In this document: positions 2,846 to 39,837 of the stretch, piece after piece
Position numbering within the stretch: the first letter of the stretch is position 1
Layout: every line of letters begins with the position of its first letter
Virus record (IMG/VR): IMGVR_UViG_3300035670_009001
DNA: 64,000 bases
DNA from: an uncultured virus (IMG/VR IMGVR_UViG_3300035670_009001)
Lineage: Duplodnaviria > Heunggongvirae > Uroviricota > Caudoviricetes
Reading direction: 5' to 3' (one strand)
The notes under the pieces: model-generated
What the model was told of the DNA's origin: nothing
Database searches by the model: none
The model's input: only the letters and a program-made list of their open reading frames with translations
Position numbers and translations under genes: made by a program

Positions 2846-5245
2846 CTATTTCAATAAAAATCCAAGTTCGTAGACCATTGGTCTCATCTTTTCTTCAAGA
2901 ACCTTGTACTTGTCTCTGAACTCTTTGAATTGCTCAGGATAGTATTCTTTCCAAAGTAATTTAAGTTGTGCATAACCTGCGTCCCAACTATTCAAATGGT
3001 TTGTATCGTCAGCAAAGTTTCTTCTCATTCCAAACGACAATCTTACTAAATTGGTTCCACAATCCAAAACATTTTTTGCTTCTTCAGATAATTGGTCATA
3101 GATTCTTTGTTCACCGAACAACAAATTGTAAACGTAACGGTCTGAATCAGTTCTCGCATCGTTATACAACTCGGTGTAGTTGTTGGTATTTGCCAAGTTA
3201 ATCATTTCTTCTTTTGACATCCAAAAGAATTGGTTTTTTATATCCCAAAGTTGGTCCTTATAAGTTATTTGACGAAGACTTGATTGTTCCGATGATCCAT
3301 TGAACAGTGATAAAATTGTCGAATCATTTTGGAAATCTCTCGTGATTACATTCGGACTTAAATATTCATCTTTTTCATTCAACCAATTCGAGGATATTAA
3401 TTTTCTTACCGCAAAATGAACAACAACTTTATTAAAATTTTCTTTTGTGATTGATATACCATTTTTTGCAGAAAACGCAGAGGAAAATAGAGCATTCATA
3501 GTTCCATTCGATTGAGGGATGTTTTGTGATGCAAGTGCGTATCCTAATGAATTTTTTGCTAATCTTCCGTATCCTTTTGGTTTTACTAATAATGCAGATG
3601 AAACCTGAGGTGCGTCATAAGTTTTAATCCCTTTCAAACTGTCTTTTAACCACCGATTTAATGGGAGTTGCTCATCAACATTATAGAAAGTTTTAACTCC
3701 GTTTTCATGAATTTTATAGTTTTTCAATTCCAAAATTGTAAAATCAAAATTTGGTTCTACATCGTTTATTTCACTTCGTTTCCAAATACTGAAAGTCAAA
3801 GGCCAACTTTTTACTCCCTCAAAGTCTTTAGCGTTCATAACAAACCCATAGGAGTACGTAAATTTATTCAAAATTTTTCTCCTAAATTCTTTGTAAACTT
3901 GACCTGTCATGAATGTAGGTTTTGAAAACATACAAATATGAATGTTCTCGAATTCTGATAATCTATAAAAAAATTGAGCATATAATTGGGAAGCACTTCT
4001 ATCAAGTTTATCCTGATTCATTTTCTTATTAATTTCAGTTGTCGCAACCCCTTTTTTACTTTTTCCCTGAGTCATATCTGATGAGGTTGCATAAGGAGGA
4101 TTCATTAAAACAATAATTTGTTTACCACTCTCTATTGCAGTTTTTAGTCCTTGCGGTAAGAAATCGTAATCATCGTTAAGAAAATCGAATTGAAATTTCT
4201 TCTTTGCCTCTGGGTTGTACCCCATCTGTTCTGCAGTTTGTATGTCACTGTAATTCAAAGTGGAAACATAAAGTTCTTTGAACTTATAATCACGTGTCAA
4301 ATTACCGGTACCCCAAGCAGGATCCCAAACCACATATTTTTCCTTCCAATCTCCTCCAAAGACTGATGTAATATATTCATGCGCCTTATCTACCCAAATA
4401 GTCGGTGTAAAGAATTCACCTTGTTTACGACGAGTAACATCCTGAACCAGTCGGTCAACAACCGCAGTTAAATGTTCTCTTTGTTTTGGTGTATATTCAC
4501 GAGAGAAGTGTGAGAAAAACGAAGTAAACGCTTCTCTACTCTTAAGATTTACTTCATTAAATGCTTTAGTAACCACTGTTTTCCTTCGAGTTACAGGATG
4601 AAGATAATTTTCATCAGGGTTTACTAATAATTGGACAAACAAATTTGCCATTTGATTTGTATCCAACTTATGTTTTCCAATAACCTTCTCTTCGAAATGT
4701 TTGAAAACCTCGGTCACATTGTGAGGAGTAATAGGAATCAGTCTTTTTACCCCATCGGTCAGGTCTTTAATTTTATCGACACAATCAGCAATATCTACTA
4801 TACTGAATACGTGTGGATTGATTCTAATATCTTCGATCAATAAAGTGAAAAGTTCAATATTCGTATGAGCATTTGATGGTGCAATATCCCAATTGAAATC
4901 CATACCCAAATAATTAAAGATGTCATTGGTGTGAATTGCAAAGCATTCGTTTCTATCCGCAACCAATATAACTGATGGCAATAACTTACCTGAAAGTTCA
5001 AATTTCTTGATATAGTATATTGCTTGGCATAATACTTTAACTTGGTTAACCTTAGAAGTTAAATCTAAGTCAAATTTGAACTCGCAAAGAAGTCTCACGT
5101 TGTGTTTTTTGGATTCGCCGTACCCATCACACCCAAGAGGTGAGTTGAATTCAATGTCCCCAAATTTTTTGGTCAACAGTTGACGGTAAAAGTGTTCTAC
5201 GTCTTTTTCGTTTAGGAAGGATGTAAGTGTGGAGTTTGTCATCAT
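2846..5245 (-). CDS. amino (N6-adenine) DNA methyltransferase with an N-terminal PD-(D/E)XK-like domain (Type IIG-like restriction-modification fusion)
   Basis: GEFFTP, VWDPAWGTGNL (motif I), NPPY (motif IV); N-terminal E..V..CDG...CEFK nuclease-like pattern. Confidence 0.8.
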   Translation of the reverse strand: MMTNSTLTSFLNEKDVEHFYRQLLTKKFGDIEFNSPLGCDGYGESKKHNVRLLCEFKFDLDLTSKVNQVKVLCQAIYYIKKFELSGKLLPSVILVADRNECFAIHTNDIFNYLGMDFNWDIAPSNAHTNIELFTLLIEDIRINPHVFSIVDIADCVDKIKDLTDGVKRLIPITPHNVTEVFKHFEEKVIGKHKLDTNQMANLFVQLLVNPDENYLHPVTRRKTVVTKAFNEVNLKSREAFTSFFSHFSREYTPKQREHLTAVVDRLVQDVTRRKQGEFFTPTIWVDKAHEYITSVFGGDWKEKYVVWDPAWGTGNLTRDYKFKELYVSTLNYSDIQTAEQMGYNPEAKKKFQFDFLNDDYDFLPQGLKTAIESGKQIIVLMNPPYATSSDMTQGKSKKGVATTEINKKMNQDKLDRSASQLYAQFFYRLSEFENIHICMFSKPTFMTGQVYKEFRRKILNKFTYSYGFVMNAKDFEGVKSWPLTFSIWKRSEINDVEPNFDFTILELKNYKIHENGVKTFYNVDEQLPLNRWLKDSLKGIKTYDAPQVSSALLVKPKGYGRLAKNSLGYALASQNIPQSNGTMNALFSSAFSAKNGISITKENFNKVVVHFAVRKLISSNWLNEKDEYLSPNVITRDFQNDSTILSLFNGSSEQSSLRQITYKDQLWDIKNQFFWMSKEEMINLANTNNYTELYNDARTDSDRYVYNLLFGEQRIYDQLSEEAKNVLDCGTNLVRLSFGMRRNFADDTNHLNSWDAGYAQLKLLWKEYYPEQFKEFRDKYKVLEEKMRPMVYELGFLLK

Positions 5246-25064: not shown

Positions 25065-28000
25065 ATGTTAGAAATCACTTCTGAAGTACCAAAAAAATTT
25101 GAGAAGGTATTTGTACTTTATTCGACAGAAAATTACTTCGACATTGTAACCGAATGTGCGAAATCTATTAGAGAGTTCAGTAAATTACCAATAATCATAT
25201 ACCTTATCAACTCCGATAAAAAAATTGAACTCGATAATACAACAACAATAAGATGGGATTGTGACATCGATGGTTTGTCAGATAATTCATATTTGATTGA
25301 TAACAACAATTTTTATATTAATAGAAAAAACCCGGCAATCTACAACATATTAATTCAAAGACCTTTGATAATGAAAGACGTATTATCAAAGTATTCCAAT
25401 ATGGCTTGTTACGTGGATAGTGATTCAGTAGCAACACCATTGGTGGATACCATTTTTTCTTACTTCAAAGAAGATTCTTTCCACCCGTATTTTGTTGAAG
25501 GGATATACGAATTTCTTAAATTCGAAGGACGTGGAGGTGGAGGAGCCTTAGGGGGTGGTTGGTCGGACACATTGGAACATAACGCTTGCGAACTTTTCAA
25601 CGTTGACCAAACGGTTAGGAAATACTATAGACAAACAGGTTATTTTGTTGCAGGTCAAAATAACTTTGACTTTTTAGACGAGTGGTATTGGATGTGTAAT
25701 CATCCTAAAATTATAAAAAATATCGGAAAGTACGCTCCATATGACGAGGAAACAATATCAAACGTTTTATTATGGAAATATAATATCCAAGAAGGGTTAC
25801 CTTATATATATGTTAATGGTTCTGTCGAAACTGTTGATAAAATGTACAACAAGGTTGAATATAAAGGTCCAGGAACTTTTAACTTCGATGGTAACTGGCT
25901 ACGAATACCATATTATAAAGAACATTTATTATTCTTCCATGGAGAAAAAAATCCACAACTTATGAGACAGATGGTTGAAGAAATAAAAAAATATACTTTA
26001 GATTCTAACGTTAGAGAATATCCTAATATTAACCCAAGTAAAAATTGGGGTGACATCATCACTAAATTTATCTTAGAACATTTTTCAGGAATAAAGTTAA
26101 ATGACGAAGATGTTTTTCATTATGACCAATTCGGAAAAATACCTCATAAAAACGGTAAAATTATTGGAGTGGGTAGCATTGCCCGATTCATAAAACCTAA
26201 CGATTATGTTTGGGGGACGGGTTCTATCGATAATGATAGTATTGGACAAATACCAAAAAAAATATATGCGGTACGAGGCCCTAATACAAGAGAAGTTCTC
26301 ATGAGACATGATTGGGAAGTGCCTGAGGTATATGGAGACCCCGCTCTTTTGTTTCCCAAGATTTACAATCCCAAAATAGATAAAAAATATAAATATGGTT
26401 TAGTGCCTCATTATGAACATTACTCAACTAAAGAAGGATTGTTATCCATAAACAGAATTGAGGATTTAGGTATTAAAATAATAAATGTAACATCAGGTAT
26501 TCACGAATTTATAGACCAACTTTTAGAATGTGAAAACATTTTATCATCGAGCTTACATGGACTTATCGCCGCCGACGCATATAGAATACCAAATTATAGA
26601 GTCAACATATCACATGAATTACAAGGAGGAGATTTTAAGTTTCTTGACTATTATTCTTCAGTGAAGAGGAATCACTACCAACCCTTAAATTTATCGTCAC
26701 GAACTGTGATTGAAGAAATAGAAAATTTGAAATTCGGTTTAGGAGATATTTCAATCACAAAAGATTTATTGGAGAATTCTCCTTGGGAAGATCTTGAATG
26801 TGAATATTTCCCTAATCATAAAAAACTCAGAGTGTTATATTTGGCCCCCCACCTGTCCACAGGAGGTATGCCATCTTACCTTCTCAAACGGATTGAAACT
26901 ATTTCACAACACTATCCTTTTGTAGAATTTTTCTTGGCAGAATTCTGTCAATACTCAACATTGTATACAGTCCAACGTGATAGAATAAAAGAAATCATAC
27001 CCGAGGAAAGATTTTGGACAATAAACACATTGGATGACCACGATGTGGAAAACTCAATGAAAGTGATTGATATAATTAAAACTCATTATATTGACATAGT
27101 ACATGTTGATGAAATGATTGAAGGGTTTGATTCATTCAACAAAGTTCCAGATGAATTGAAAAATGCTCTGTATGATAATGATAGAACTTGGAAAGTGGTT
27201 GAAACTTGTCACAACATATGGTTCGATCCAGGTTCATCTAAGCTATTCCATCCAGATGGATATGCATTGTGTACCCCTTACCATTTAGAAACTTTCAAAG
27301 AGATGCCGTCTCATAAAGAAGTTTTTGAATTTCCAATAGAAAACAAATTCAGATCACGTGTGGAACAAGTACGTGCCCAAGAGGAATTAGGTTTGGATAT
27401 TACAAAAGTACATATTATTAACGTTGGTCTTTGGACTTCGGGAAAAAACCAAGGTGAAGGGATTGAAATCGCAAGATATTTCCAAGACCGAAATGTAGAA
27501 TTTCATTTTGTAGGAAACCAAGCATCAAACTTCGAAAGTTATTGGGGTCCACTAATTTCAAATTTACCTTCTAATGTTCGTATTTGGGGAGAAAGAAATG
27601 ATGTTGAAACATTTATGAAAGCGTCTGACATTTTGATGTTCAATTCTACTTGGGAGTGTAATCCTTTAGTTATCAGAGAAGCAGCATCTTTGGGTCTTAA
27701 AATAATTGCAAGAGATTTACCTCAGTATGTTGGTATGTTTAATGGTTTGATTACCCCCTTAGTAGATGATATCACCACAAATGTTACATCACTACGGAGA
27801 TTAATTTCATTAAGTCGGGATTATAAAATCGTAGATGGGATGGCAAAAGATTTTGCGGATAGACATTACAACTTTTATAAATTTCTACAATCTCAAGAAC
27901 CGAGAAAAAAAACCAAAACAACTTCAAAAGTACACATTAAACAATTTTTCATAAACGAACCATTTTTAGAAATTTTGGGACAAAGTGACAGTGTTTATGA

Positions 28001-28994
28001 TGTTAAATTTTTTGATGAACATGGTATTTGTCATTATCACAATAAAATTCAATCTAACCATTGGGTTAAATTGAACCGCAGGTATTTTACAAAGTGGAAT
28101 ACAAAAATTCTTGAAGATGGTGTACTAATATACGATAACACCCTTAATTATACAGGTAAGCGAGTTTTTATAAATTTTGACAGTAGTTCCTTAGGCGACA
28201 CTATATCTTGGATTCCTTATACTTTGGAGTTCAAAAATTATCACCAATGTGATGTAATTGTCTCAACATATTGGAACCATCTTTTCCGTGAATCATACCC
28301 TGAAATTGAATTCGTTGAACCGGGGAGCATTGTGAACAATATATATGGTCAGTACAATATTGGTTGGTATTATGATATTAACAAAGAACCTACATTACCA
28401 AATACTATACCTTTACAACAAGCTGCAACAAACATTTTGGGATTACCATTTAATGAAATTAAACCGAGAATTTCATATAAAATAAATGAAAGACCTTACG
28501 AAGAAAAATATGTGACAATCGCGACTAACTCTACAGCTGGTTGTAAATTTTGGACGAGGGACGGTTGGCAAGAACTTATAAACCATCTTAATTCCTTAGG
28601 ATATAAAGTTATTAACGTGTCAAAAGAAAATAACCCATTCCACAATTGCGAAAAAATAAAAGATACTTCAATGGATTATACTATGAACGTTATTCATCAC
28701 AGCGAATTCTTTATTGGTTTGTCAAGTGGGCTATCTTGGTTATCTTGGGCGATTGGAAAACACGTAGTTATGATAAGTAATTTTACAGAATCTGATCATG
28801 AGTTCACCACCAATTGTACAAGAATCACCAATCCAAATGTTTGTAATGGTTGTTGGAACAACCCAATTCACAAATTTGATAAAGGAGATTGGGATTGGTG
28901 CCCAATTCATAAAGGAACTCCACGTCAATTTGAATGTCATACTTCAATAACCTCCGAAATGGTAATTAACAAAATACAACACTTATTAAAATGA
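25065..28994 (+). CDS. four-domain glycosyltransferase: GT-A (DxD) + polysaccharide pyruvyltransferase + GT4-like + Aah/TibC-like protein O-heptosyltransferase
   Basis: YVDSD; NWGD..VRGP..DPALL..SSLHG; APHLSTGGMP..ECNPLVIREA; SLGDTI.W..FIGLSSGLSWL.W..CNGCWN..FD..DW.WCP.HKGT.RQFEC. Confidence 0.85.
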   Translation: MLEITSEVPKKFEKVFVLYSTENYFDIVTECAKSIREFSKLPIIIYLINSDKKIELDNTTTIRWDCDIDGLSDNSYLIDNNNFYINRKNPAIYNILIQRPLIMKDVLSKYSNMACYVDSDSVATPLVDTIFSYFKEDSFHPYFVEGIYEFLKFEGRGGGGALGGGWSDTLEHNACELFNVDQTVRKYYRQTGYFVAGQNNFDFLDEWYWMCNHPKIIKNIGKYAPYDEETISNVLLWKYNIQEGLPYIYVNGSVETVDKMYNKVEYKGPGTFNFDGNWLRIPYYKEHLLFFHGEKNPQLMRQMVEEIKKYTLDSNVREYPNINPSKNWGDIITKFILEHFSGIKLNDEDVFHYDQFGKIPHKNGKIIGVGSIARFIKPNDYVWGTGSIDNDSIGQIPKKIYAVRGPNTREVLMRHDWEVPEVYGDPALLFPKIYNPKIDKKYKYGLVPHYEHYSTKEGLLSINRIEDLGIKIINVTSGIHEFIDQLLECENILSSSLHGLIAADAYRIPNYRVNISHELQGGDFKFLDYYSSVKRNHYQPLNLSSRTVIEEIENLKFGLGDISITKDLLENSPWEDLECEYFPNHKKLRVLYLAPHLSTGGMPSYLLKRIETISQHYPFVEFFLAEFCQYSTLYTVQRDRIKEIIPEERFWTINTLDDHDVENSMKVIDIIKTHYIDIVHVDEMIEGFDSFNKVPDELKNALYDNDRTWKVVETCHNIWFDPGSSKLFHPDGYALCTPYHLETFKEMPSHKEVFEFPIENKFRSRVEQVRAQEELGLDITKVHIINVGLWTSGKNQGEGIEIARYFQDRNVEFHFVGNQASNFESYWGPLISNLPSNVRIWGERNDVETFMKASDILMFNSTWECNPLVIREAASLGLKIIARDLPQYVGMFNGLITPLVDDITTNVTSLRRLISLSRDYKIVDGMAKDFADRHYNFYKFLQSQEPRKKTKTTSKVHIKQFFINEPFLEILGQSDSVYDVKFFDEHGICHYHNKIQSNHWVKLNRRYFTKWNTKILEDGVLIYDNTLNYTGKRVFINFDSSSLGDTISWIPYTLEFKNYHQCDVIVSTYWNHLFRESYPEIEFVEPGSIVNNIYGQYNIGWYYDINKEPTLPNTIPLQQAATNILGLPFNEIKPRISYKINERPYEEKYVTIATNSTAGCKFWTRDGWQELINHLNSLGYKVINVSKENNPFHNCEKIKDTSMDYTMNVIHHSEFFIGLSSGLSWLSWAIGKHVVMISNFTESDHEFTTNCTRITNPNVCNGCWNNPIHKFDKGDWDWCPIHKGTPRQFECHTSITSEMVINKIQHLLK

Positions 28995-29665
28995 ACTCAG
29001 AAAACTTTATTTGGGAACCTAAATGTTATGATGGTTTTAGAGAAACCGTTGAAAAAGAAATTTTTGTAGATAAAATTTATGAAAGATTTTTTGAGGTTGA
29101 GGAGGGAGACATTGTATTCGATATTGGAGCAAGTTTAGGCCCATTCGCATATTCAATACTACATAAAAACCCTTCTCACGTGTTTGCATTCGAACCAAGT
29201 TATGAAGAATTCAAAACATTAGTTTTGAACACAAGGCATGGTAATGTGACTCAGATAAACAAAGGAATTAGTAGTACTATCGGTGAATTTAATTTCACAG
29301 ATGTTTTTGACACCTCAGGTAATTACAAACTTTATTCAACAACTTTCAATAAAGTAATACAAGATTATAATATCGATAAAATTGATTTTCTAAAAACGGA
29401 TTGTGAAACTGGTGAATATGATATCTTTACACTTGAAAATTTATTTTGGATAAAAAATAATGTTCGAAAAATATCAGGTGAATGGCATTTAAGACAGCCT
29501 TGGATGAAAGAAAAGTTTCGGATATTCCGAGACGTTTATTTAAGAGTTTTCACCAATTTCAAAGTGTTCTCATTTGATGGAGTTGACATTACATGGTCTT
29601 TATGGAATGACAATTTTATCCCATATTATAATGAAGTTATGATTTATATTGATAATAGAAACTAA
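28991..29665 (+). CDS. FkbM family SAM-dependent methyltransferase
   Basis: VFDIGASLG, AFEP, IDFLKTDCE.GE. Confidence 0.85.
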   Translation: MNSENFIWEPKCYDGFRETVEKEIFVDKIYERFFEVEEGDIVFDIGASLGPFAYSILHKNPSHVFAFEPSYEEFKTLVLNTRHGNVTQINKGISSTIGEFNFTDVFDTSGNYKLYSTTFNKVIQDYNIDKIDFLKTDCETGEYDIFTLENLFWIKNNVRKISGEWHLRQPWMKEKFRIFRDVYLRVFTNFKVFSFDGVDITWSLWNDNFIPYYNEVMIYIDNRN

Positions 29666-30471
29666 ATCAAATTATTTGGTAAATAACCTCTGAAATTTGT
29701 GTATAGGTGATTTTTTAACTTTTCAGCATAAATTTTATTGTGTAAAGGTCCAGGATGCATATAATCGACACCATAATCCTCAAATTTACCATATAGTCCA
29801 TCAAACCGATTGAATTCCCCGTATATCAGAGGTATTCCATTCCAACCATTCCACATCCAATTACACTTTTTATATCCCAAAAAATATTTTATCAATAAAT
29901 GATTTTTATACCAATTCATAAAATCTTCGTTATCATTCTGAATTGATGACAAATGGTTTTGTAATTCTTGTCCATCCTCAGTTTCTTTTATATATCCCCA
30001 CTGTGATGCCACCATGAATGGTTCAATACCACCATCCTTAGTATAAAATTCTCTCCTTTGGGGAGAGGTATACATAATCAAAACCAAATCCGGCTTAATC
30101 AAGTCATAATAAGATATCAGACATCTTGATATATAATCATTACTTCTCCCACCCATACCAAAGTTATGATTAACTCCGTTAGGTATTAATTTGGAAAATT
30201 GAGCCGGCCACGTTTCATCATTATTCACTCCAACACCTTCAGTATTGGAATCACCAATACACATTATTTTAAATCCTTCTTTATTTGTTGAGTCTCCTCT
30301 GAAACCGAGCTCATTATAAGTGTACGTACACAAACGGGTTTGGTCTGAACCAGATGTGTCATAAGATCGATTAACTTTTTCCGACAAATTCCATTTATAA
30401 CTTGAAATTTCGAATTCTTCAGGAGTCCAATATTTCAAATTATCAACACAGGGATGATAAGTTTTATTCAT
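29662..30471 (-). CDS. SGNH/GDSL-fold protein (acyltransferase or esterase)
   Basis: YNELGFRG, IGDSNTEG, DYMHPG. Confidence 0.75.
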   Translation of the reverse strand: MNKTYHPCVDNLKYWTPEEFEISSYKWNLSEKVNRSYDTSGSDQTRLCTYTYNELGFRGDSTNKEGFKIMCIGDSNTEGVGVNNDETWPAQFSKLIPNGVNHNFGMGGRSNDYISRCLISYYDLIKPDLVLIMYTSPQRREFYTKDGGIEPFMVASQWGYIKETEDGQELQNHLSSIQNDNEDFMNWYKNHLLIKYFLGYKKCNWMWNGWNGIPLIYGEFNRFDGLYGKFEDYGVDYMHPGPLHNKIYAEKLKNHLYTNFRGYLPNNLI

Positions 30472-30528
30472 AATATTAATTCGGAAAATACATACTTTTC
30501 TACAATCATAATTGGTCTCCTTCGAAAA

Positions 30529-31668
30529 TTAAATAATATTACTTTCAAATCTACGTAAAAAATATTTTTGTATTATTTGTTTATGAGTGTCGAAATTATG
30601 TAAGTTTAATTTATTGTGTTGGCAAATCCTAATAACTGAATCCGAATTATAAGTTTTAGACAATCTTATTCCGGCATCGATTACAGAATCTTCATTTGTA
30701 CAATCATACTTACCAATTACTGATTCAAATACATCAAATCCAAATTCTTTCAATTTATCTAAATGACCTTTAGATGCGAAAATTACAAATGGAACCCCTA
30801 AAAATATAGGTTTGAATGTTTTTTCGGTAAGATGTATTGGTCGATCAAAAGAATTTGACTCCACAATTAAATTAACTTTAGATTCATAATACCATATAGG
30901 ATTAATAGTATATAAAAACTCATCAGCTTTATCTAATTTTGTCCCATACATAACATCGTCTTGCAACTGAAATGAATTGAAACTATTTATGTCAATCTTT
31001 AAGTACTTAACAAATTCATCCTCTTCATAATCTTTCAAATTTATATAATTACAAACCCAAGTCCAATTTGTTTTATCCAATAATCCTCGTTTCCATAACT
31101 TTTTCAAAAAATCAAATTTATGCTTATGAACTCTTCGGTTTAGACAAATAAATTCTTTGGTTGGATTGTTCGTTTTGTATAAATCTAAATCCCCTAAATA
31201 CTTGTTCATTTCGATTGGGGTTGCTGACAAAAAATGTGGAAAATGAATATAATTTATGTGGTGTTTTCCATATTTTGATTTTCCTTGATTTATATTTGAA
31301 TTATTTGTTACCAAATAAAATTTGTTCAAATTAACACCACATTGTCTAATCCGTGTAATAAATTCGACTCTTTCAGAATCGATGAAAAAATTAGATTCGG
31401 TACTATAATCAGCCAAAAAATAAAATCCAAGATTGTTCATTTCTTTGATTAATTCAAAAAATTCAAACTTATTAGTTTTAAATTTAAAATTAATCGTATG
31501 TTCATTTTTTGGTTCCCACAGAAATACTATAATATTTTTTTTTCTCGAGTCAACAATGTCACTATCATACATCTTAAACTGAACTCCGAAATAATATTCC
31601 ATCAGACATTGAACTCCGCTACCCCCTGTTATAGGGTGGTACCAAAAATGTATATCATTTATTACCAT
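30529..31668 (-). CDS. putative glycosyltransferase, GT10-like paralog 1
   Basis: FICLNRR..HK, NLIVES, LTEKTFKPI...PF, LKEFGFD.F. Confidence 0.55.
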   Translation of the reverse strand: MVINDIHFWYHPITGGSGVQCLMEYYFGVQFKMYDSDIVDSRKKNIIVFLWEPKNEHTINFKFKTNKFEFFELIKEMNNLGFYFLADYSTESNFFIDSERVEFITRIRQCGVNLNKFYLVTNNSNINQGKSKYGKHHINYIHFPHFLSATPIEMNKYLGDLDLYKTNNPTKEFICLNRRVHKHKFDFLKKLWKRGLLDKTNWTWVCNYINLKDYEEDEFVKYLKIDINSFNSFQLQDDVMYGTKLDKADEFLYTINPIWYYESKVNLIVESNSFDRPIHLTEKTFKPIFLGVPFVIFASKGHLDKLKEFGFDVFESVIGKYDCTNEDSVIDAGIRLSKTYNSDSVIRICQHNKLNLHNFDTHKQIIQKYFLRRFESNII

Positions 31669-31682
31669 ATAATTAACTCATA

Positions 31683-32249
31683 CTATATAAACGCTTTGTA
31701 TTTTCTATACTTTTCACCATAAGGAAATTTAATTTTATTCAATTCTTCAATACCAATATAATCAATTAATTTTTTGATTCCATCACCATAATATAATTCT
31801 TCATAAGAAATTATGAAGCTACCTTCGACTTTGTACTTTTGAATCTCTTCTTTGATTTCTATTAAATAATCATCTGATTTGTCTAAAAGTAATGATTCAT
31901 CAAAAAAATATTTACCCCCCCATTTTTTGGTGTTAATTGACGTTAACCATGATTCCCTTTGTTCAACATAATTTTCTCTAAATAAAATTATAATCTTTTC
32001 AGAATTCTGAAGTATATTTTTGTAATTTTTATTCGGCTCACAGATTTCTTTAATGACCAAATGTTTTGTTAAATATTTCCACGTATCAAAATTATTGATG
32101 TTATTTATAACCACTTCTTTATCTGAATACTTTTTATATTCAGAATTAGTCGTTGGTTCAAGAAGCGTGGTGCATTCATTATGTTGCCCTAACCAAAACA
32201 ATAAATTAGTACTTCCAGATCTTGGCTCACTCAATATTGTAATAACCAT
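31683..32249 (-). CDS. sulfotransferase-like protein (Stf0/PAPS-binding)
   Basis: PRSGST PAPS loop, L.EP, L.R.N, ISYEEL. Confidence 0.7.
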   Translation of the reverse strand: MVITILSEPRSGSTNLLFWLGQHNECTTLLEPTTNSEYKKYSDKEVVINNINNFDTWKYLTKHLVIKEICEPNKNYKNILQNSEKIIILFRENYVEQRESWLTSINTKKWGGKYFFDESLLLDKSDDYLIEIKEEIQKYKVEGSFIISYEELYYGDGIKKLIDYIGIEELNKIKFPYGEKYRKYKAFI

Positions 32250-32284
32250 ACTAACTCTTCTTTTACCACAATAGGTTTGATTAA

Positions 32285-33367
32285 TTATATTAAAGTTTTT
32301 ATAGGTGTAATAAATTCTTGTAAGTTACCCCAACAATGATTATTTGGTAAGAAAGAATTAACTTCCTTTATAAATTCTTTATACTCCGAATGAGATTCAT
32401 TCCAAATTTGTTCTAATAAAAACTCCTCTTCAGTAAATGTGCCCCAATTAGTAATTTTATTATAGTATATGTCAGCTTTATTTCCGAAAATAGAATACAT
32501 TAAATCGTAAAACAACTTCATTTCTCGGTAATTTTTTTGTTGTACAACAAACGAAGTTTTTACTTTATTAATCCGTGGTATCGTTGAAATGAACCTTAAA
32601 TTGTCCATCAACACATCCCAATTACCATTTATTCTTGTTTTTGTTTCATAAGTTTCTTTTGTTCCCGCATCAATACTAATTTCGCAACTTTTCACATATT
32701 TGTGTATGTTTGGCATAGATTCCCACATTTCTTTATTCCAACGCGTTGCATTGGTGTGTAGGTGAATTGATTTTAGTTTTGGCCATTTAGTTTTATCAAA
32801 ATTCCTTAAAAAATCTCTAAAACCAACTGACACAAATGGGTCTCCACTGCCTGTTATATATAATGTATTAACTTCACTCCCGTATGCGTCTTCAATGTCT
32901 TGTATATCTTGTTTTACTTTTTTAATTTTTTTACTGTCAGCAATAATCATCTCTAACCTACATGAGGGACATTCAAGATTACAACTCCTATCCATAGAAA
33001 ATTGAATTATCTGTGGTGATGTTAATTTCCCTTCTTTATGTTGCTCTATTTTTAATTTTAAATCGGGGGTTAAATCATCTTTATGGTAAATGGGTTTAAT
33101 TCTACCAACATCTCCGAAGGTCTTTAGTTGATGTAAATATGGGCATTGTGTCTTATCACAATATCTATATGAACCATCTAATATACTGTCTCGAATATCG
33201 TTCGCCTCTTCTGAATTCCACGCTTCGTATGGTTTAGTATCTTCAGGTAAAAATTTAGTTAACCATGACGCGCAACATAAAAATCTTCGATGATCATGAA
33301 TTTCTAAAGAAGTAAACGGAACCGCACAAATATAATTTTTCAAATTGGATTTAGAATTCATAGCCAT
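32285..33367 (-). CDS. radical SAM protein with an N-terminal twitch/SPASM-like Cys cluster
   Basis: CNLECPSC, TGSGDP; N-terminal C..PF..CC..W...C...C. Confidence 0.85.
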   Translation of the reverse strand: MAMNSKSNLKNYICAVPFTSLEIHDHRRFLCCASWLTKFLPEDTKPYEAWNSEEANDIRDSILDGSYRYCDKTQCPYLHQLKTFGDVGRIKPIYHKDDLTPDLKLKIEQHKEGKLTSPQIIQFSMDRSCNLECPSCRLEMIIADSKKIKKVKQDIQDIEDAYGSEVNTLYITGSGDPFVSVGFRDFLRNFDKTKWPKLKSIHLHTNATRWNKEMWESMPNIHKYVKSCEISIDAGTKETYETKTRINGNWDVLMDNLRFISTIPRINKVKTSFVVQQKNYREMKLFYDLMYSIFGNKADIYYNKITNWGTFTEEEFLLEQIWNESHSEYKEFIKEVNSFLPNNHCWGNLQEFITPIKTLI

Positions 33368-33386
33368 ATTAAAGATTAATTTAATC

Positions 33387-33878
33387 TCAAATTATTTTTG
33401 ATTTCCCTAAATCACGTTCTCTTATGTAAAATAATCCAGTATATCTAATACCTTTTGTGATAGGTTTAACTTCGTGATATTCTGTAGATTTATAGTGATA
33501 TAAATCCCCAACATCAGCAACGAATAATTTATCATTTAAAAAAAATTCACCACCTTCATAATCATCATTCAATTTTAAATTTATGTTATATACAAAATCT
33601 TTATTAAATTCGGTGTTTGGATTTCTATCAATATGTCTAGGAAAATAATCTCCTACCGAATATCGTATAACACCTAAATTAACATTCAATATAGATAAAC
33701 CAAATTGTTCTTTTCCGTAATTAACTATTTTATTAGAAATATATTCTTCTGGTTGAAATGTGTAAATATGGTAATGTGGTTCAAGCCCGTACAAGTGTGG
33801 CCGTTTCCAATTATTTTGTTCTTCACAAAACTTTATAATATCATTACATTCATTTCTTGTGAATAATTTTTTATGCAT
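33387..33878 (-). CDS. 2OG-Fe(II) oxygenase (prolyl hydroxylase-like)
   Basis: Y..GD.F..HID, LNDDYEGGE, HEV.PI..G.R. Confidence 0.85.
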   Translation of the reverse strand: MHKKLFTRNECNDIIKFCEEQNNWKRPHLYGLEPHYHIYTFQPEEYISNKIVNYGKEQFGLSILNVNLGVIRYSVGDYFPRHIDRNPNTEFNKDFVYNINLKLNDDYEGGEFFLNDKLFVADVGDLYHYKSTEYHEVKPITKGIRYTGLFYIRERDLGKSKII

Positions 33879-33889
33879 GTGCTTACTAT

Positions 33890-34366
33890 TTACATTAATT
33901 TTTTTTCTCTAACTCTTTCGTATGCTAATATCATACCAACTAACCAATCAGATGTCAATATATCCCTCTCGTGAAATATTTTACTTCCTTCGAATATTAC
34001 GCCATCACCTTGTTCTAAAATTATTTCAATTTTTTCACCACCAATCCAAAGATATAAAGGACTTATAGATGAATCGGATTGTTTAATTAAAACACTAATA
34101 ACAAGTTCACATACATCCTTATGTTTATGAAGTTTTTGTCCTTTGAGTGATTTTCTTGTATATCCTAAAATTGTTTTTACTTTTGTTGAATAAAATTCTT
34201 CAACTTCTATTTTTAATTTTTCGGCATATATATCTGATATGTACCATTTATGTACTATATCAGAATCTTTGACTAACCAATCTTTTTTTTTCTCTAATTT
34301 TTCAAATTCAGAAAAAATGAATTCACATTCATCTAATGATAAAGCATTTTTAATTATTTTATACAT
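33890..34366 (-). CDS. 2OG-Fe(II) oxygenase
   Basis: L.KHKD, GDG.IF.G...HER. Confidence 0.75.
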   Translation of the reverse strand: MYKIIKNALSLDECEFIFSEFEKLEKKKDWLVKDSDIVHKWYISDIYAEKLKIEVEEFYSTKVKTILGYTRKSLKGQKLHKHKDVCELVISVLIKQSDSSISPLYLWIGGEKIEIILEQGDGVIFEGSKIFHERDILTSDWLVGMILAYERVREKKLM

Positions 34367-34406
34367 GTTTATATTGTATACTTGTTATCTGATTTGTATT
34401 TTTTTA

Positions 34407-34982
34407 TCAAATAAAATCTTTATCTTCAATTTTAAAATCAACAAAAGGTTCTTGTACGTTAAGTAATGTATGTAATTTTTTATACATATCATAAGAACCT
34501 TTCGGACCTGGATGATCATCTCGTTTTTCTCCAGTACCTTCTTGCCAATTTGTACTAACTTGTATTAATGAAACGAAATCAGGTGTACATCTATGAAAAT
34601 ATTTACTCCAAGTAACAAATACCGGATTATACTCATTTAAAAAAAATTGTAATTTTTTAAAAAACTTTATTTCATTATCTCGTTCACCATTTATCCACCG
34701 ATAATACTCATCGATTTTCAATAAATCCAACCTATTTATTAAATTACCATTTGCATAAAATCGAGTAGGTATTCTACCGGGGTCAGTAAATACAATCAAA
34801 ACTCTATCTCCAACCTCAAAATCAGGTAAATCCCCCAATTGAAATATTATTGAATTATTATCCGCACCACGAACTCCAAGTTTAATAAGTTCGTAATGAT
34901 GTGACATGTAATACGTCCAATGGTATTTTGGAATATCATAATCAACAAATGAATCACCGAAACAAAATAATCTATGTTTCAT
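34407..34982 (-). CDS. SGNH/GDSL-fold protein
   Basis: CFGDSF, G..N, DDHPG. Confidence 0.7.
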   Translation of the reverse strand: MKHRLFCFGDSFVDYDIPKYHWTYYMSHHYELIKLGVRGADNNSIIFQLGDLPDFEVGDRVLIVFTDPGRIPTRFYANGNLINRLDLLKIDEYYRWINGERDNEIKFFKKLQFFLNEYNPVFVTWSKYFHRCTPDFVSLIQVSTNWQEGTGEKRDDHPGPKGSYDMYKKLHTLLNVQEPFVDFKIEDKDFI

Positions 34983-35014
34983 ACCTATTTGTTTTCATTA
35001 TAGACTATTTTGTA

Positions 35015-35167
35015 TTATAAATGTTTTGTAATAAACAATTCAAAAAATTTATTAACTACAAGTTGAACTCTTTCCTTTTCTTCGGAGGTTAGTTGGGATG
35101 TAGTCCTATTATTAACATCATTTAACGCCTTTTTTTTATATAATGGTGGGTGATTAGCTATATCCAT
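35015..35167 (-). CDS. small protein, 50 aa (MDIANHPPLYKKKALNDVNNRTTSQLTSEEKERVQLVVNKFFELFITKHL), not in the ORF track
   Basis: translated by hand; fills the gap directly after the Hint protein gene. Confidence 0.55.
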   Translation of the reverse strand: MDIANHPPLYKKKALNDVNNRTTSQLTSEEKERVQLVVNKFFELFITKHL

Positions 35168-35196
35168 AATTATTTATTTTTTTATTACTGTCGATT

Positions 35197-37482
35197 TTAT
35201 TGAAAAACGGCTTGTCTTTTAAAGGTTTTATTTAGTAATTCATTATCTCCTAATCCAGAAACTATAAAATCCTCAACTATGAAGTTATGCTCACTTTCAA
35301 ATAAAAGATTACCATCTATTTCTAAATTATAAAAATTATCTACATATTGAATACCTAATTCAACTCCATTTGCTTCGCAAATTGGTTTCCATTCCCCGTT
35401 ATCATAGAATGGGTGTATTCTATCAGAAGTCATTCCCTTATATTTTACAACCTCAACAACATCATTTGTAGGGTGTATTAATTTATCAGTTACAACACCT
35501 CTCACATATTTACCATCCTTATAACTTAAAACGTAGTCTCCTACTTTAATATCCGCAATATTTTTGAAACTACCATCTTCCATTTTTACTTTAGTTTCAG
35601 CAGTGAAACAAATAAGAACGGGACGTAAATTGTGTACTAATACATTATTGGCAAAATATGTATGATATTTTTCAATTTCTGATAAGTTATATACGAGAGT
35701 AGATTCTTCTATCACACTCATGTTAACTAATTTAACATCTCCGTTATGTAATTTTACAACATCGCCAATTTCTATTTTTTCTACTTCTATTTTTTTAGTC
35801 GGTTTAGTTCCTTCAAATGAAACATTATTATAGTCTTCTGGCTCACCTGCATAATTGGCCCATCCCTTATTGATAACATAGATTGGGTGGTCCAATGTCG
35901 CCTTCAAATTAGTTCCATCTGAAAATTCATATTGAACAATCTTATCAATTGTTTTAGAAAAAATATTCAAAACTTTACTAACTTTTGATTGATTATTTTT
36001 CAAATCAAATGACATTACATAATCACCGACTAATATATCTTCAATATTTTTTGTAAGTCCGTTTTTTAACAAAATTTGTGTTCCAGCAACAAAACAAGGG
36101 GCATTATGAGAAACTACCGAATTAATTGCGGTAGAACCATTTATAATGTAAGTATCCGCATCCTCGACATCTAATTCAACATAAGTTAAATTATTGTCAG
36201 TGGTCACATAAAAATTTAATTCATCTATATCTATCAAATTACCGTTAATATCATATAAATAATCTGTTTCAGGATCTATAGTATGTATAGTTTTAAATGA
36301 ACCTGTGTCAGAAGTAGAGTTAAAAGTCAAAAATGATTTTCGTATTCCACTGAAAAAGGAATCACTATCCACTTTCAATTCAAACATACTATTGTATTTT
36401 AAATTTTCCAATTTTTTATAAATAACAATTGAGGATGTTAGATATGAACCACTTGGAAATGTGCTAGTTGGGAAACTAAAATTAGTATTTGATTGTTCTT
36501 CAATAGAACGAGATATATAATAAGATTTTACATAATCACCTACAACAAATTCTGATATGGGTTTATATGTATCTTCATCAGTTAATATTTCGTGAGTTGA
36601 TAATATTCCGGCCGAATCATTTTTAAATAAGTTAGTTGTAAATTCATAATAATGATGATCGGCAATTTTATTTGTATATTGATTTTCAACTATTTCTGAA
36701 GTCAAATCTGTTGGTAAATCAAATATTGAGCTAATTCTATAAGTGTGTAAAGTTAGTACGTCCAAATTAGAACCATATACAATACCGAAAAATCTATATG
36801 ATGTAATGTGGTTGTTTCCATCTACATTAGATGAGTGAAAATGGTATTGTTCTATTAATTTATCTTCTGATAAATTTTCAGTAATAAAATTATTCCATCT
36901 GTCTTCATCTGATTCGTTTTCGGTTTGTGAACCTATTTTAAAGAAATCAATTGGATTGTGTACCTCAGATATATCCTTTATGGTCGCGTCTGGTATATTA
37001 TTTGGATTTATCTCTTTTGTAAGGGTGTTTTTTTCACCTAATGATGATGAATGAAAATATCCGACACAATAATCGTTTATAGAATTATCGGTAAATAAAT
37101 TAAAAACATTTAATCTATTTTTACAATATTCACTATCAAACAAAGCAGATTCATCATAAGCCAATCTTAGAATAAATTTACCTTCGGAATCTTGAACTTG
37201 GGTCGGGTATATGGTATCTATGTCTTCCTTGTGTAAGTTTATAAGACTTATTTCAGGTGCCATAGAAGTTGTAAGTTGATTTACAAATTTTTCTTGAAAC
37301 TCGGTTTTATAGATAATATCCAATTCAGAAATATTATTATCTACTAATATTTGTTTAAAATTAGAAAAATCAAAATTAACTAATTCTTGATTTATAAATC
37401 CTGTATCAGTATTCAATTCTAATAATCTCAAATTACCATTTGAGTCCTTGACAAAATCAGCAGAAAATAATGTTCCTTTCAT
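35197..37482 (-). CDS. ATP-grasp-like domain fused to three tandem Hint (intein-like) domains
   Basis: N-terminal SADFVKDSNGNLRLLELNTDTG; Hint1 aa292-460 (G..VGDYV..VSHN), Hint2 aa463-618 (CFVAGT..T.DHP..LVHN), Hint3 aa625-761 (CFTAET..HPF). Confidence 0.8.
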   Translation of the reverse strand: MKGTLFSADFVKDSNGNLRLLELNTDTGFINQELVNFDFSNFKQILVDNNISELDIIYKTEFQEKFVNQLTTSMAPEISLINLHKEDIDTIYPTQVQDSEGKFILRLAYDESALFDSEYCKNRLNVFNLFTDNSINDYCVGYFHSSSLGEKNTLTKEINPNNIPDATIKDISEVHNPIDFFKIGSQTENESDEDRWNNFITENLSEDKLIEQYHFHSSNVDGNNHITSYRFFGIVYGSNLDVLTLHTYRISSIFDLPTDLTSEIVENQYTNKIADHHYYEFTTNLFKNDSAGILSTHEILTDEDTYKPISEFVVGDYVKSYYISRSIEEQSNTNFSFPTSTFPSGSYLTSSIVIYKKLENLKYNSMFELKVDSDSFFSGIRKSFLTFNSTSDTGSFKTIHTIDPETDYLYDINGNLIDIDELNFYVTTDNNLTYVELDVEDADTYIINGSTAINSVVSHNAPCFVAGTQILLKNGLTKNIEDILVGDYVMSFDLKNNQSKVSKVLNIFSKTIDKIVQYEFSDGTNLKATLDHPIYVINKGWANYAGEPEDYNNVSFEGTKPTKKIEVEKIEIGDVVKLHNGDVKLVNMSVIEESTLVYNLSEIEKYHTYFANNVLVHNLRPVLICFTAETKVKMEDGSFKNIADIKVGDYVLSYKDGKYVRGVVTDKLIHPTNDVVEVVKYKGMTSDRIHPFYDNGEWKPICEANGVELGIQYVDNFYNLEIDGNLLFESEHNFIVEDFIVSGLGDNELLNKTFKRQAVFQ

Positions 37483-37501
37483 AATATATTCCTTTTAATT
37501 G

Positions 37502-37508
37502 ATAAATA
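37502..37508 (-). promoter_or_regulatory. TATTTAT motif upstream of the Hint gene
   Basis: ataaata about 20 nt upstream of the ATG. Confidence 0.35.
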
Positions 37509-37525
37509 TCCCAGTAATCATTTCG

Positions 37526-38020
37526 TTATATTATATTAATTTCTCTTTTGATTGAACTTTTACTGATAAAAGATATGAGAGACCATCTTTCTCCCATCGT
37601 AACTTCTTTGACTTCGTGTAGTTTACTTCCATAAAACGAATATATCGAGCCCTTAATTTTTGGCATTACTATTTTTGGATTATAACAAATTAATTCACCA
37701 CCCTCATAGTCATCATTAAGACAAGCTCCAATATTAAATTCGCTTCTTTTATCCACATGAGGTTCAAATTTATTACCTGACTGAACGTTCTGTAAATGTA
37801 TCAGACTTAACGGTTCTATTAATCTAATTTTGGTACTCGATTCTAAATAGTTTGTAAGTCTTTCGAAAATCCATTCTGTATCCTCATCCCTCGTAATATG
37901 CCATGCAAAATAAATCGTTTCATTACTTTGCCACCATTCACTCGAATAATGTTTTTCAAAAATATTAGATAGTGAAATAATTTTTTCACATTCTTCTATC
38001 GTAAATTTTATCTCGTTCAT
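37526..38020 (-). CDS. 2OG-Fe(II) oxygenase
   Basis: F.PHVD, LNDDYEGGE, HEV.EV..GER; paralog of 33387..33878. Confidence 0.85.
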   Translation of the reverse strand: MNEIKFTIEECEKIISLSNIFEKHYSSEWWQSNETIYFAWHITRDEDTEWIFERLTNYLESSTKIRLIEPLSLIHLQNVQSGNKFEPHVDKRSEFNIGACLNDDYEGGELICYNPKIVMPKIKGSIYSFYGSKLHEVKEVTMGERWSLISFISKSSIKREINII

Positions 38021-38053
38021 TCAACTCTATTAGAATTATATCATATAATAAAT

Positions 38054-38170
38054 TCAATGGTTGTAAATAAAAGGGTCTCTTTTCTTTAACTCTTCAATTT
38101 TCTTTTTTAACTCTTTTTTCCTTTTGTGGTCTTTAATTTTTTTCAAAAACCAATTGATAATTTTTTTCAT
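38054..38170 (-). CDS. small Lys-rich protein, 38 aa (MKKIINWFLKKIKDHKRKKELKKKIEELKKRDPFIYNH), not in the ORF track
   Basis: ATG overlaps the carbamoyltransferase stop (ATGA). Confidence 0.65.
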   Translation of the reverse strand: MKKIINWFLKKIKDHKRKKELKKKIEELKKRDPFIYNH

Positions 38171-39837
38171 AGTATTTTATATATTATATAATTATCTAAA
38201 ACTAGTAAGTCTAAATCAGTGTCTTTGAAAGTTTCTATCGCATCAAACGGATTTAGAACCATTGTTTTATCTTTAACATTAAAGGATGTATTCAATATAA
38301 TTGGATATCCACTTAGTTTTTCGAACTCAATTAATAAGTCGTGAATAACAGTATTTTCATATACAGTTTGAATTCTTGAGGTTCCGTCCACGTGAACAAC
38401 TGCCGATAATTTATCAGCGTATTCTTCTCTAACTTTAACAATTTGATTCATGTATGGTACATCATCAATTGCGTAGAAGAACTCATTTTGTTTCTCTTTA
38501 ATAACCATAGGAGCGAAAGGACGAAACCCCTCTCTTTTCTTAATTAGCCTATTAATTCTAGATTTCATATCAGGAACTGTAGGGTCCGCTAAAATAGACC
38601 TGTGTCCTAACGCTCTTGCCCCAAATTCAATTCTATCTCTATACCACCCAACTACTTTACCCTCATGAATTTTGTTCGCGACATATTTTATTAATCTGTT
38701 GTAATCGTGAATTTCAAAAAAATTCAAATTTTTAATGTGCCCCAAATAAAATTCAACATCGTACTCCGGTCCTAAAAAAGGATTTTTAGTTACTCGTTTG
38801 TCTAATTTTTTATTTTGTACAAGGTAATGAATACACGCACCAACACAGGATCCAGCATCAGATGGTGCAACTGGTATCCAAATTTTTTCAAAATCAGAAT
38901 TACTTACTATCTTTCCATTTGCGGTACCATTATATGCCGAACCACCTCCTAAACAAAGATTATTACTACCAAGATTTTTCAAACTTTTGATAATATCGAA
39001 TAAAACTTCTTCGTATCTTAGTTGGACTGAAGCCGCTAAATTTTGATGAATTGTAGTAATTTCTTCTTCAGTTAATCTTGGTGAAATACCTAAATGTTCT
39101 ATCAGTTTTTCGTTGAACATCAATTTTTCTGACTTATCCCAACAAAAAATATTCATATTACAGATTAATTCTCCATCTTTGAATTCTATTAAACTTCTAA
39201 TTTTTTCAATATACTCTTGAGGATCTCCGTATGATGCCAATCCCATTAGTTTGTACTCTCCCTCATTTGGTTTGAATCCCAAATACGAAGTCATTGTAGA
39301 ATAGTAAAGACCCAATGAATGAGGGTATTTCCCCAAATCATGATATTCAATTCCATCATCATCGGCCAAACCAAAAGATAATGTGTCAATTTCACCAACA
39401 CCATCAATAGACAAACAGATTGCCCTTTCAAAATCGGAAGTGAAAAAAGAATAATACTGATGAGCCAAATGGTGTTCGGAGTAAAATACTCTTCCCTTAA
39501 ATGGTCTCAAATGTTTATTTACATCTGAGATATTTTTTAAGATTTTAACTAAAGATTTAAAAGAATATTTTGGCGATGTGAAAAAGTTTTTCTTAATGTT
39601 AGTCAGTACCCTTTTTAGTTTTAGATTGAGGTCTTCATAATAACAAACCATTTCAATATCATCATAAGTTATACTATAATGACTAAAGATGTATTCGATT
39701 GTATTAATTGGAAAAGAACTGTCGTGTTTAATTCCCGTAAATTTTTCCTCTTCGCAAGCGAAAACCAACTCACCATCTTTGAATAAACAGGCAGATGAAT
39801 CATGATAAAATGATGATATTCCGAGTATATACATCAT
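38167..39837 (-). CDS. carbamoyltransferase (NodU/CmcH family)
   Basis: HDSSA..EEK, HH.AH, DGVGE, EYKLMGLA.YG, EFGARALG.RSI, FRPFAP, HVDGTSRIQ, LNTSFN. Confidence 0.95.
   Translation of the reverse strand: MMYILGISSFYHDSSACLFKDGELVFACEEEKFTGIKHDSSFPINTIEYIFSHYSITYDDIEMVCYYEDLNLKLKRVLTNIKKNFFTSPKYSFKSLVKILKNISDVNKHLRPFKGRVFYSEHHLAHQYYSFFTSDFERAICLSIDGVGEIDTLSFGLADDDGIEYHDLGKYPHSLGLYYSTMTSYLGFKPNEGEYKLMGLASYGDPQEYIEKIRSLIEFKDGELICNMNIFCWDKSEKLMFNEKLIEHLGISPRLTEEEITTIHQNLAASVQLRYEEVLFDIIKSLKNLGSNNLCLGGGSAYNGTANGKIVSNSDFEKIWIPVAPSDAGSCVGACIHYLVQNKKLDKRVTKNPFLGPEYDVEFYLGHIKNLNFFEIHDYNRLIKYVANKIHEGKVVGWYRDRIEFGARALGHRSILADPTVPDMKSRINRLIKKREGFRPFAPMVIKEKQNEFFYAIDDVPYMNQIVKVREEYADKLSAVVHVDGTSRIQTVYENTVIHDLLIEFEKLSGYPIILNTSFNVKDKTMVLNPFDAIETFKDTDLDLLVLDNYIIYKIL

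Follow-up and report, generated by a model that had tools for sequence, protein, structure and literature searches.

The window analysed here is a 64,000-nucleotide stretch of DNA from an uncultured virus (IMG/VR IMGVR_UViG_3300035670_009001), and it looks like part of a large tailed phage. Its guanine-plus-cytosine (GC) content is 27-39%. The right 40 kb lies almost entirely on the minus strand and encodes nucleotide-sugar and glycan enzymes. Part of this island (29662-38020) consists of a gene for a Hint-domain protein (35197-37482, in a region of 28-30% GC) with small enzymes on both flanks. A reading made from the DNA letters alone (the sequence-only reading) had proposed that these enzymes, despite unrelated folds, share a C-terminal tag of two hydrophobic residues, mostly [LIF]-I-COOH. 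The genes concerned, including the Hint-domain gene and its small downstream partner, are as follows.

29662..30471, minus strand: GDSL/SGNH-like enzyme (PF13472, E 2.7e-5), ending LPNNLI, with the tag codons at 29665-29676
30529..31668, minus strand: enzyme of 379 amino acids without a Pfam family, ending ESNII
31683..32249, minus strand: protein of 188 amino acids without a Pfam hit, ending YKAFI
32285..33367, minus strand: radical S-adenosylmethionine (SAM) enzyme, ending IKTLI
33387..33878, minus strand: 2-oxoglutarate (2OG)-Fe(II) oxygenase (PF13640, E 1e-7), ending GKSKII
33890..34366, minus strand: protein of 158 amino acids without a Pfam hit, ending EKKLM
34407..34982, minus strand: protein of 191 amino acids without a Pfam hit, ending DKDFI
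35015..35167, minus strand: partner protein of 50 amino acids without a Pfam hit, untagged (TKHL)
35197..37482, minus strand: anchor protein of 761 amino acids with a predicted ATP-grasp-like part and three Hint domains, untagged (AVFQ)
37526..38020, minus strand: 2OG-Fe(II) oxygenase upstream of the Hint gene, ending EINII
38167..39837, minus strand: carbamoyltransferase, ending YKIL

Every tail quoted in the sequence-only reading is present in the translated sequence. These comprise the seven consecutive endings NNLI, SNII, KAFI, KTLI, SKII, KKLM and KDFI, the INII and YKIL of the genes on the other side of the Hint gene, the looser fits LGII (55844) and ETMI (62420), and the dissimilar ends of the left-hand block (TQRK, YSNN, LMLS, FLLK, KVSQ, YEIR). 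Several of the enzyme names did not hold, as 30529 ('GT10-like'), 31683 ('sulfotransferase'), 33890 ('2OG') and 34407 ('SGNH') had no Pfam hit at E<=0.001. The two remaining 2OG genes, 33387 and 37526, are paralogues, and the HxD...H iron triad and 2OG-binding Arg are present, with H82, D84, H135 and R145 invariant in 35 sequences. The carbamoyltransferase is a borderline member of the set, its relatives ending HKIL (five), YKTL (two), EKIN, KKRL and LIYK.

We scored as tagged any open reading frame (ORF) in the window of at least 80 amino acids whose last two residues were both [LIFMV]. Two hydrophobic terminal residues were found in 9 of 10 consecutive genes (29662-39837) compared to 3 of 45 elsewhere (Fisher 3e-7), a probability that flatters the result because the boundaries of the run were picked after the data had been seen. 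The narrower ending [LIF]I was present in 7/11 ORFs of the run, 8/38 of the island and 0/24 of the left block, and the internal frequency of this dipeptide in the island was 0.019. The best internal control for composition is provided by the 22 nucleotide-sugar genes at 38-64 kb, which lie on the same strand, are as tightly packed and have 27-31% GC; hydrophobic ends were found in 2 of these 22. AT-rich homologues outside the lineage are also without the tag. Composition therefore does not explain the tails, and the suggestion that they exceed what AT-rich codon usage would produce was borne out.

To follow the tag in related phages we used IMG/VR, from which we recovered 8 loci with the radical SAM gene (83-87% identity) and 44 loci with a relative of the Hint protein (33-84% identity, on contigs of up to 326 kb); positional counts refer to 27 related loci after dereplication. 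Close to the Hint gene, almost all genes in these loci end K-[KST]-[LI]-[IL], including members of families that are absent from the window. At positions +1 to +5 from the Hint gene, 23, 18, 23, 20 and 18 of the 27 genes were tagged (102/135), and at position -1 this was 15/27. Further upstream the tag faded, with 12 of 115 genes tagged at position -7 and beyond and 1 of 59 at positions -7 to -9. At least one neighbour was tagged in all 27 loci. A complete relative of 326 kb had [LI][LI] ends on 14 of 34 island genes versus 15 of 309 elsewhere (Fisher 1.6e-8). Orthologues in related phages keep the tail: those of 29662 end NNLI, SSLI or NKLL, the 31683 family is tagged in 20/22 members and the radical SAM family in 15/15, and the orthologue of 33890 in the related locus L006 ends KKLI where the window has KKLM. 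Together with a separately ascertained sample of 2OG genes, described below, the 27 loci establish that the tag co-occurs with the Hint gene, as had been anticipated. No shared N-terminal motif was found on the tagged proteins, and no clade-specific flavour of the tag, which might have hinted at a co-evolving reader, was evident, LI being dominant everywhere.

Among cultured phages, the region had no match by megablast, and neither the 832-aa protein nor the radical SAM enzyme had a match by tblastn; the Hint protein matched 17 records by tblastn, through its Hint part alone. The tag lineage is that of uncultured large aquatic phages. In the 326-kb relative (G001), genes far from the island, at about 214-250 kb, end DKLI, RNLI, NKLL, LDLI and SNLI, and these have no Pfam family.

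We next asked which proteins carry the tag. The 431 neighbouring proteins were clustered into families by BLAST (E 1e-5, 60% coverage), and tagging proved to be bimodal. Nineteen families with two or more members were at least 70% tagged, the high group including 52/56, 20/22, 15/15, 14/14, 11/14, 8/10, 8/8, 8/8, 7/7 and 7/7, and other families were never tagged, at 0/10 (PhoH), 0/10, 0/9 (Hsp20), 0/8 and 0/7. By Pfam, the tagged families correspond to 2OG-FeII_Oxy_3, Oxy_5, Radical_SAM, SET, GDSL and class I methyltransferase, with several lacking any hit. The presence of the tag on 2OG, radical SAM and SGNH families upholds the earlier view of a convergent protein-level signal across unrelated folds, and small enzymes of many unrelated kinds (2OG, radical SAM, SET-like, SGNH and methyltransferase-like, besides several without a known family) have gained the motif independently.

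Paralogues within the window point the same way. Gene 30529 has five paralogues in the sugar island, which end INFQ (39834), TIMS (50778), MCDE (52084), ELLK (53337) and LGII (55844), and of the SGNH paralogues, 59008 ends NGFS and 50152 ends EKIW. Within families, therefore, the tag follows location and not ancestry. All six members of the 30529 family lie on the minus strand of this one island, and the part they share has no Pfam hit; a hydrophobic end is seen on the Hint-proximal copy (SNII) and, loosely, on 55844 (LGII).

To define the motif, families were given equal weight and 19 tagged families (183 proteins) were set against 36 untagged families (146 proteins). The last residue was Ile (0.55) or Leu (0.27), the second-last Leu (0.60) or Ile (0.26), the third-last Lys (0.25), Ser (0.25), Asn (0.13) or Thr (0.09), and the fourth-last Lys (0.31), Asn (0.12) or Thr (0.12). 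Upstream of the fourth-last residue, information dropped to the level of untagged families. The final two positions are partly set by the definition of 'tagged', but neither the Leu/Ile preference there nor the bias seen three and four residues from the end depends on it. This establishes a terminal motif with the consensus [K/N/T]-[K/S/N/T]-[L/I]-[I/L]-COOH, carried on a tail that is flexible, variable in sequence and some 10 residues long. Because Leu is common as the last residue in relatives, this consensus describes the tails better than the [LIF]-I first proposed. In a structure model of the 2OG enzyme 33387 (mean predicted local distance difference test score (pLDDT) 93), residue 153 closes the final strand, and a pLDDT of less than 50 is reached at residues 161-163; this low confidence at the final residues suggests that the tag sits on a free tail.

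Codon usage separates selection on the protein from selection on the DNA. We compared 57 different 3' ends of tagged genes. A third-last Ser was encoded by AGT (7) and TCT (6), the codons for Leu were TTA, TTG, CTA and CTT, those for Ile were ATA, ATT and ATC, and the stop codon was TAA (33), TGA (18) or TAG (6). In 215 contexts, the second base alone was fixed in the last two codons, and the bases after the stop held at most 0.14 bit each. The tagged fraction was similar across gene gaps (0.39 for overlapping genes, 0.54 at 0-10 nucleotides, 0.58 at 11-30 and 0.44 at 31-80), which argues against an overlapping start-site element. Gene 29662 is convergent with its neighbour and is thus not followed by the start site of another gene, and it is still tagged, with NNLI or SSLI in orthologues. 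Selection therefore acts on the protein and not on the DNA.

The 2OG and radical SAM families were also sampled independently of the Hint gene. The 2OG sample was collected through an alignment of the 2OG subfamily and comprised 47 clusters. Where the locus included a Hint gene, 9 of 9 clusters were tagged, compared to 9 of 38 without one under a loose definition (two hydrophobic last residues). The latter nine consisted of two truncated contigs of the same lineage, two ending RS[MI]L, three ...GPPF[KR]-end variants and two long fusion proteins. Untagged 2OG loci included some with a GC of 0.23-0.35. In the stretches fetched from two cultured cyanophages, none of five annotated 2OG proteins was tagged (ends GPELR, GPKLR, PRTL, YNHE and KKIT). 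Among the best 150 cluster representatives of the radical SAM family, 14 of the 25 closest were tagged versus 14 of the next 125; distant radical SAM proteins end ...NFHHLL, and the tagged ones carry on with YETEKTLI. These alignments indicate that the tag is an add-on, the more distant 2OG and radical SAM homologues stopping before it.

The anchor around which the tagged genes are arranged is itself untagged. A model of residues 1-462 (pLDDT 81) splits into two parts. Residues 1-283 aligned by VIA-align to YgiC (Z 9.3, 205 residues aligned), glutathione synthetases (Z 8.7-9.1), GspS (8.5), trypanothione synthetase (7.7) and the ligase Cp1B (7.4), and gave a Foldseek E of 3.4e-5; all structure matches belong to one enzyme class. 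The ATP-grasp-like N-terminal part suggested by the sequence-only reading is thus supported by modelling, which predicts a GspS/YgiC/glutathione-synthetase fold for this domain. Residues D9, E22 and N24 are invariant in 23 sequences and may be equivalents of the GspS metal ligands. Residues 289-462 form an extra Hint/BIL (bacterial intein-like) domain that Pfam missed (Z 19.3 to 2lwy; profile E 5e-4 to BIL2 of 6tmm), with Gly292 at the nucleophile position and H459-N460 kept, followed by 'AP' and then Cys463 of the next Hint. Two further Hint modules begin at C463 and C625, and Pfam places Hint, Vint and Intein_splicing over residues 454-746. At E<=0.001 the anchor family comprises 840 clusters, none of which bears a name other than 'intein'.

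The anchor is accompanied by the 50-aa partner. Partner homologues of 45-52 amino acids were aligned from 24 related loci, in each of which they directly follow the Hint gene; Y10, K11, F41 and H49 are invariant and the proteins end ...F..F.AKH[LST]. The N-terminal part of the anchor is nearly absent from representative prokaryote genomes, with one match. The ATP-grasp-Hint protein and the 45-52-aa protein are a conserved, virus-only pair, and the tagged array always adjoins it. The single match lies on a 2.8-kb contig (L054) binned in a Cyanobium metagenome-assembled genome; this is probably phage DNA binned with its host, and is a weak hint of picocyanobacteria as hosts.

Enzymes of the GspS/YgiC class join an activated carboxylate to an amine, and in glutathione synthetase and GspS this is the carboxylate of a peptide's C-terminal residue. 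YgiC is reported to have peptide-spermidine ligase activity and no known physiological substrate (PMC11762307, PMC12568646). The phage domain differs from GspS, YgiC, glutathione and trypanothione synthetases in that it has no sequence match to them, aligns to YgiC 94-378 only and is fused to three Hint domains.

The left 24 kb encodes a sigma-70-like factor, a pyrimidine-dimer glycosylase, a piece of a DnaG-like primase, a methylase-like protein and large unnamed proteins. Three genes of this block are listed here.

393-1190, minus strand: sigma-70-like factor (regions 1.2, 2 and 4)
2846-5245, minus strand: Eco57I-like methylase of 799 amino acids
19366-20778, minus strand: protein with six DUF5122 beta-propeller repeats

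A 1309-aa multi-domain protein with pyruvyl-transferase, glycosyltransferase GT1 and GT9 (heptosyltransferase-like) parts is encoded at 25065-28994 on the plus strand; its C-terminus is QHLLK in the window and QHLLI in the L003 lineage. The window yielded no tRNA genes. The relative G001 encodes a ClpP-family protease at G001:C1:173934-174461 (L073; E 1.5e-56).

Short C-terminal labels that draw unrelated proteins to one reader are a recurring principle, seen in PDZ ligands, clamp-binding tails and cargo tags; to our knowledge none has been known for phage accessory or 'tailoring' enzymes. Compared with PDZ ligands, hub-binding tails, cargo peptides and degrons, the phage tag fits none of them fully. 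The class I PDZ-binding motif is x-[S/T]-x-hydrophobic-COOH. Like such ligands, the tag is a C-terminal motif of three or four residues that closes with an aliphatic residue whose carboxylate is free, and it occurs on unrelated carriers; unlike them, it has a fixed second-last residue (Leu/Ile) and Lys as often as Ser at the third-last. The C-terminal tails of T4 gp43, gp33 and gp55 bind the gp45 clamp and likewise constitute a short hydrophobic tail common to unrelated phage proteins, by which a single hub can hold them all. Their motif is another one, however, and they serve DNA replication or transcription, while the phage tag is borne by enzymes that modify small molecules or proteins. Peptides for cargo loading and encapsulation (encapsulins, microcompartments) and tags of the peroxisomal targeting signal 1 (PTS1) type also place a short terminal tag on unrelated enzymes. 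Those tags have a longer or other consensus and each has a known shell or receptor, whereas neither is evident for the phage tag. The tag is like the ssrA and MuA degrons in that an exposed tail carries basic residues and then an aliphatic end, and it differs in its bulky last residues and its confinement to one gene array.

A full-text literature search returned no paper on the tag or the ATP-grasp-Hint module. Clusters of enzymes that modify sugars and amino acids are described for cyanophages in a jumbo-phage review, in which no mention of a 'C-terminal tail' was found (PMC7824862). The tag is real and recurs in independent loci and, as far as this search extends, has not been described in print.

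As the likeliest reading we propose, tentatively and as somewhat short of an even chance, that the tag is a shared handle read by the co-inherited ligase-Hint/partner module, either as a docking element or as a carboxylate substrate. The tagged enzymes would form a variable array of 'tailoring' cassettes organised around the ATP-grasp-Hint/partner pair, and one shared reader would recognise every cassette enzyme through its tag; both the existence of a single reader for all tagged enzymes and its identity are what we infer. In the docking variant the module would act as a scaffold that gathers the tailoring enzymes, and in the substrate variant the ligase-like domain would use the free Leu-Ile carboxylate. 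A bolder form of the substrate variant, which we regard as unlikely, is that the virus encodes a system for protein C-terminal conjugation, which recognises its substrates by the tag. The ATP-grasp domain would phosphorylate the Leu-Ile carboxylate and then join it to an amine (a polyamine, Lys11 of the partner or a target protein), so that enzymes would be covalently tethered or capped on the self-processing Hint scaffold. Nothing points to a virion-assembly site as the destination of the tag, which the sequence-only reading had also entertained.

Several observations weigh against a reader within the module. Outside the island of the 326-kb relative, 4.9% of genes have [LI][LI] ends, about twice the internal dipeptide frequency of 0.023, so that the tag may be used more widely or a slight general bias towards such ends may exist. 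Because the loci share evolutionary descent, the probabilities overstate their independence, and since most loci were ascertained via the Hint gene, co-occurrence with it is partly built in; the sample ascertained through 2OG is smaller, with 9 Hint-positive clusters. Ends of RSML or RSIL are also seen in two related 2OG clusters (L082/L083 and L086) whose flanks contain no Hint gene. These solitary genes, at L082 7610-8134 and L086 9950-10534, are flanked by neither an ATP-grasp-Hint gene nor a tag array, and may represent a transferred tagged gene or an independent case. The ATP-grasp assignment comes solely from the fold, at middling Z scores (7.4-9.3). Searches of the anchor N-terminal part against Pfam at E<=0.1 gave no hit (GSP_synth reached E 0.12 in 1 of 23 members), and a PDB-sequence profile search with the anchor matched the Hint part alone, with no ATP-grasp match. 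Lastly, the ligase substrate could be a small molecule or the 50-aa partner, in which case co-location would reflect a shared pathway only.

A docking or sorting label might instead be read outside the module, by a hub of the host or the phage such as a PDZ-like domain, a membrane complex or a clamp-like ring. The hub would bring the tailoring enzymes together, and the Hint gene would simply belong to their pathway and lie next to them. A motif of four residues placed strictly at the end of a flexible tail suits such a reader, as do the Ser or Thr at the third-last position in about one third of family-weighted tails, reminiscent of class I PDZ ligands, the K-x-L-I-like ends far from the island in the 326-kb relative and the solitary RSIL/RSML 2OG genes without a nearby Hint gene. 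We nevertheless find an outside reader doubtful, given how closely the array tracks the position of the Hint gene, the departures from class I PDZ ligands at the second- and third-last residues, and the detection of PF13180 (PDZ_2) and Peptidase_S41 in 0/5 related phage records each, a search confined to these two families and to phage records. Non-polar C-termini are classic bacterial degradation signals, such as ssrA ...LAA and MuA ...RRKKAI for ClpX, and the basic-then-aliphatic tag could be a degron for an AAA+ or tail-specific protease of the host or, occasionally, of the phage, making the accessory enzymes short-lived or subject to timed turnover. The tail predicted to be exposed in the 2OG model and the ClpP of one relative are consistent with this. 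ClpP was, however, found in just 1 of 5 related phage records, known ClpX tags have small final residues and not Leu-Ile, and a degron leaves unexplained both the restriction to genes adjacent to Hint and the untagged paralogues that this genome carries in its sugar island; we think a degron improbable.

That the endings are no protein signal at all, and stem from codon bias in AT-rich DNA, from a DNA or RNA element over the stop codon (a promoter, the next gene's initiation region or a site of cassette recombination) or from paralogue ancestry, draws on the 28-30% GC of a region in which Lys, Asn, Ile, Leu and Phe have AT-only codons, on the paralogy of the two 2OG genes, on an excess of ATA (26) over ATT (10) as last codon and on the mild genome-wide excess of Ile/Leu ends in the 326-kb relative. 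It conflicts with the rarity of hydrophobic ends in sugar genes of the same GC and strand, with the untagged AT-rich homologues elsewhere, and with the use of both Ser codon families and all three stops with no information after them. It conflicts also with the independence of the tag from the distance to the next gene, its presence on the convergent gene 29662 and its spread over 19 families, unrelated folds among them. This explanation is largely refuted, and we consider it very improbable.

Aquatic metagenomes are rich in the anchor protein family, and its 840 clusters suggest that the tag marks a widespread, uncharacterised viral pathway. The tag supplies a simple sequence rule for listing members of this pathway in any genome, and the tail peptides, used as bait, offer a direct handle on the reader and the substrate. 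If the conjugation scheme were true, the system would be an ATP-grasp analogue of ubiquitin-like tagging, building a phage tailoring assembly line.

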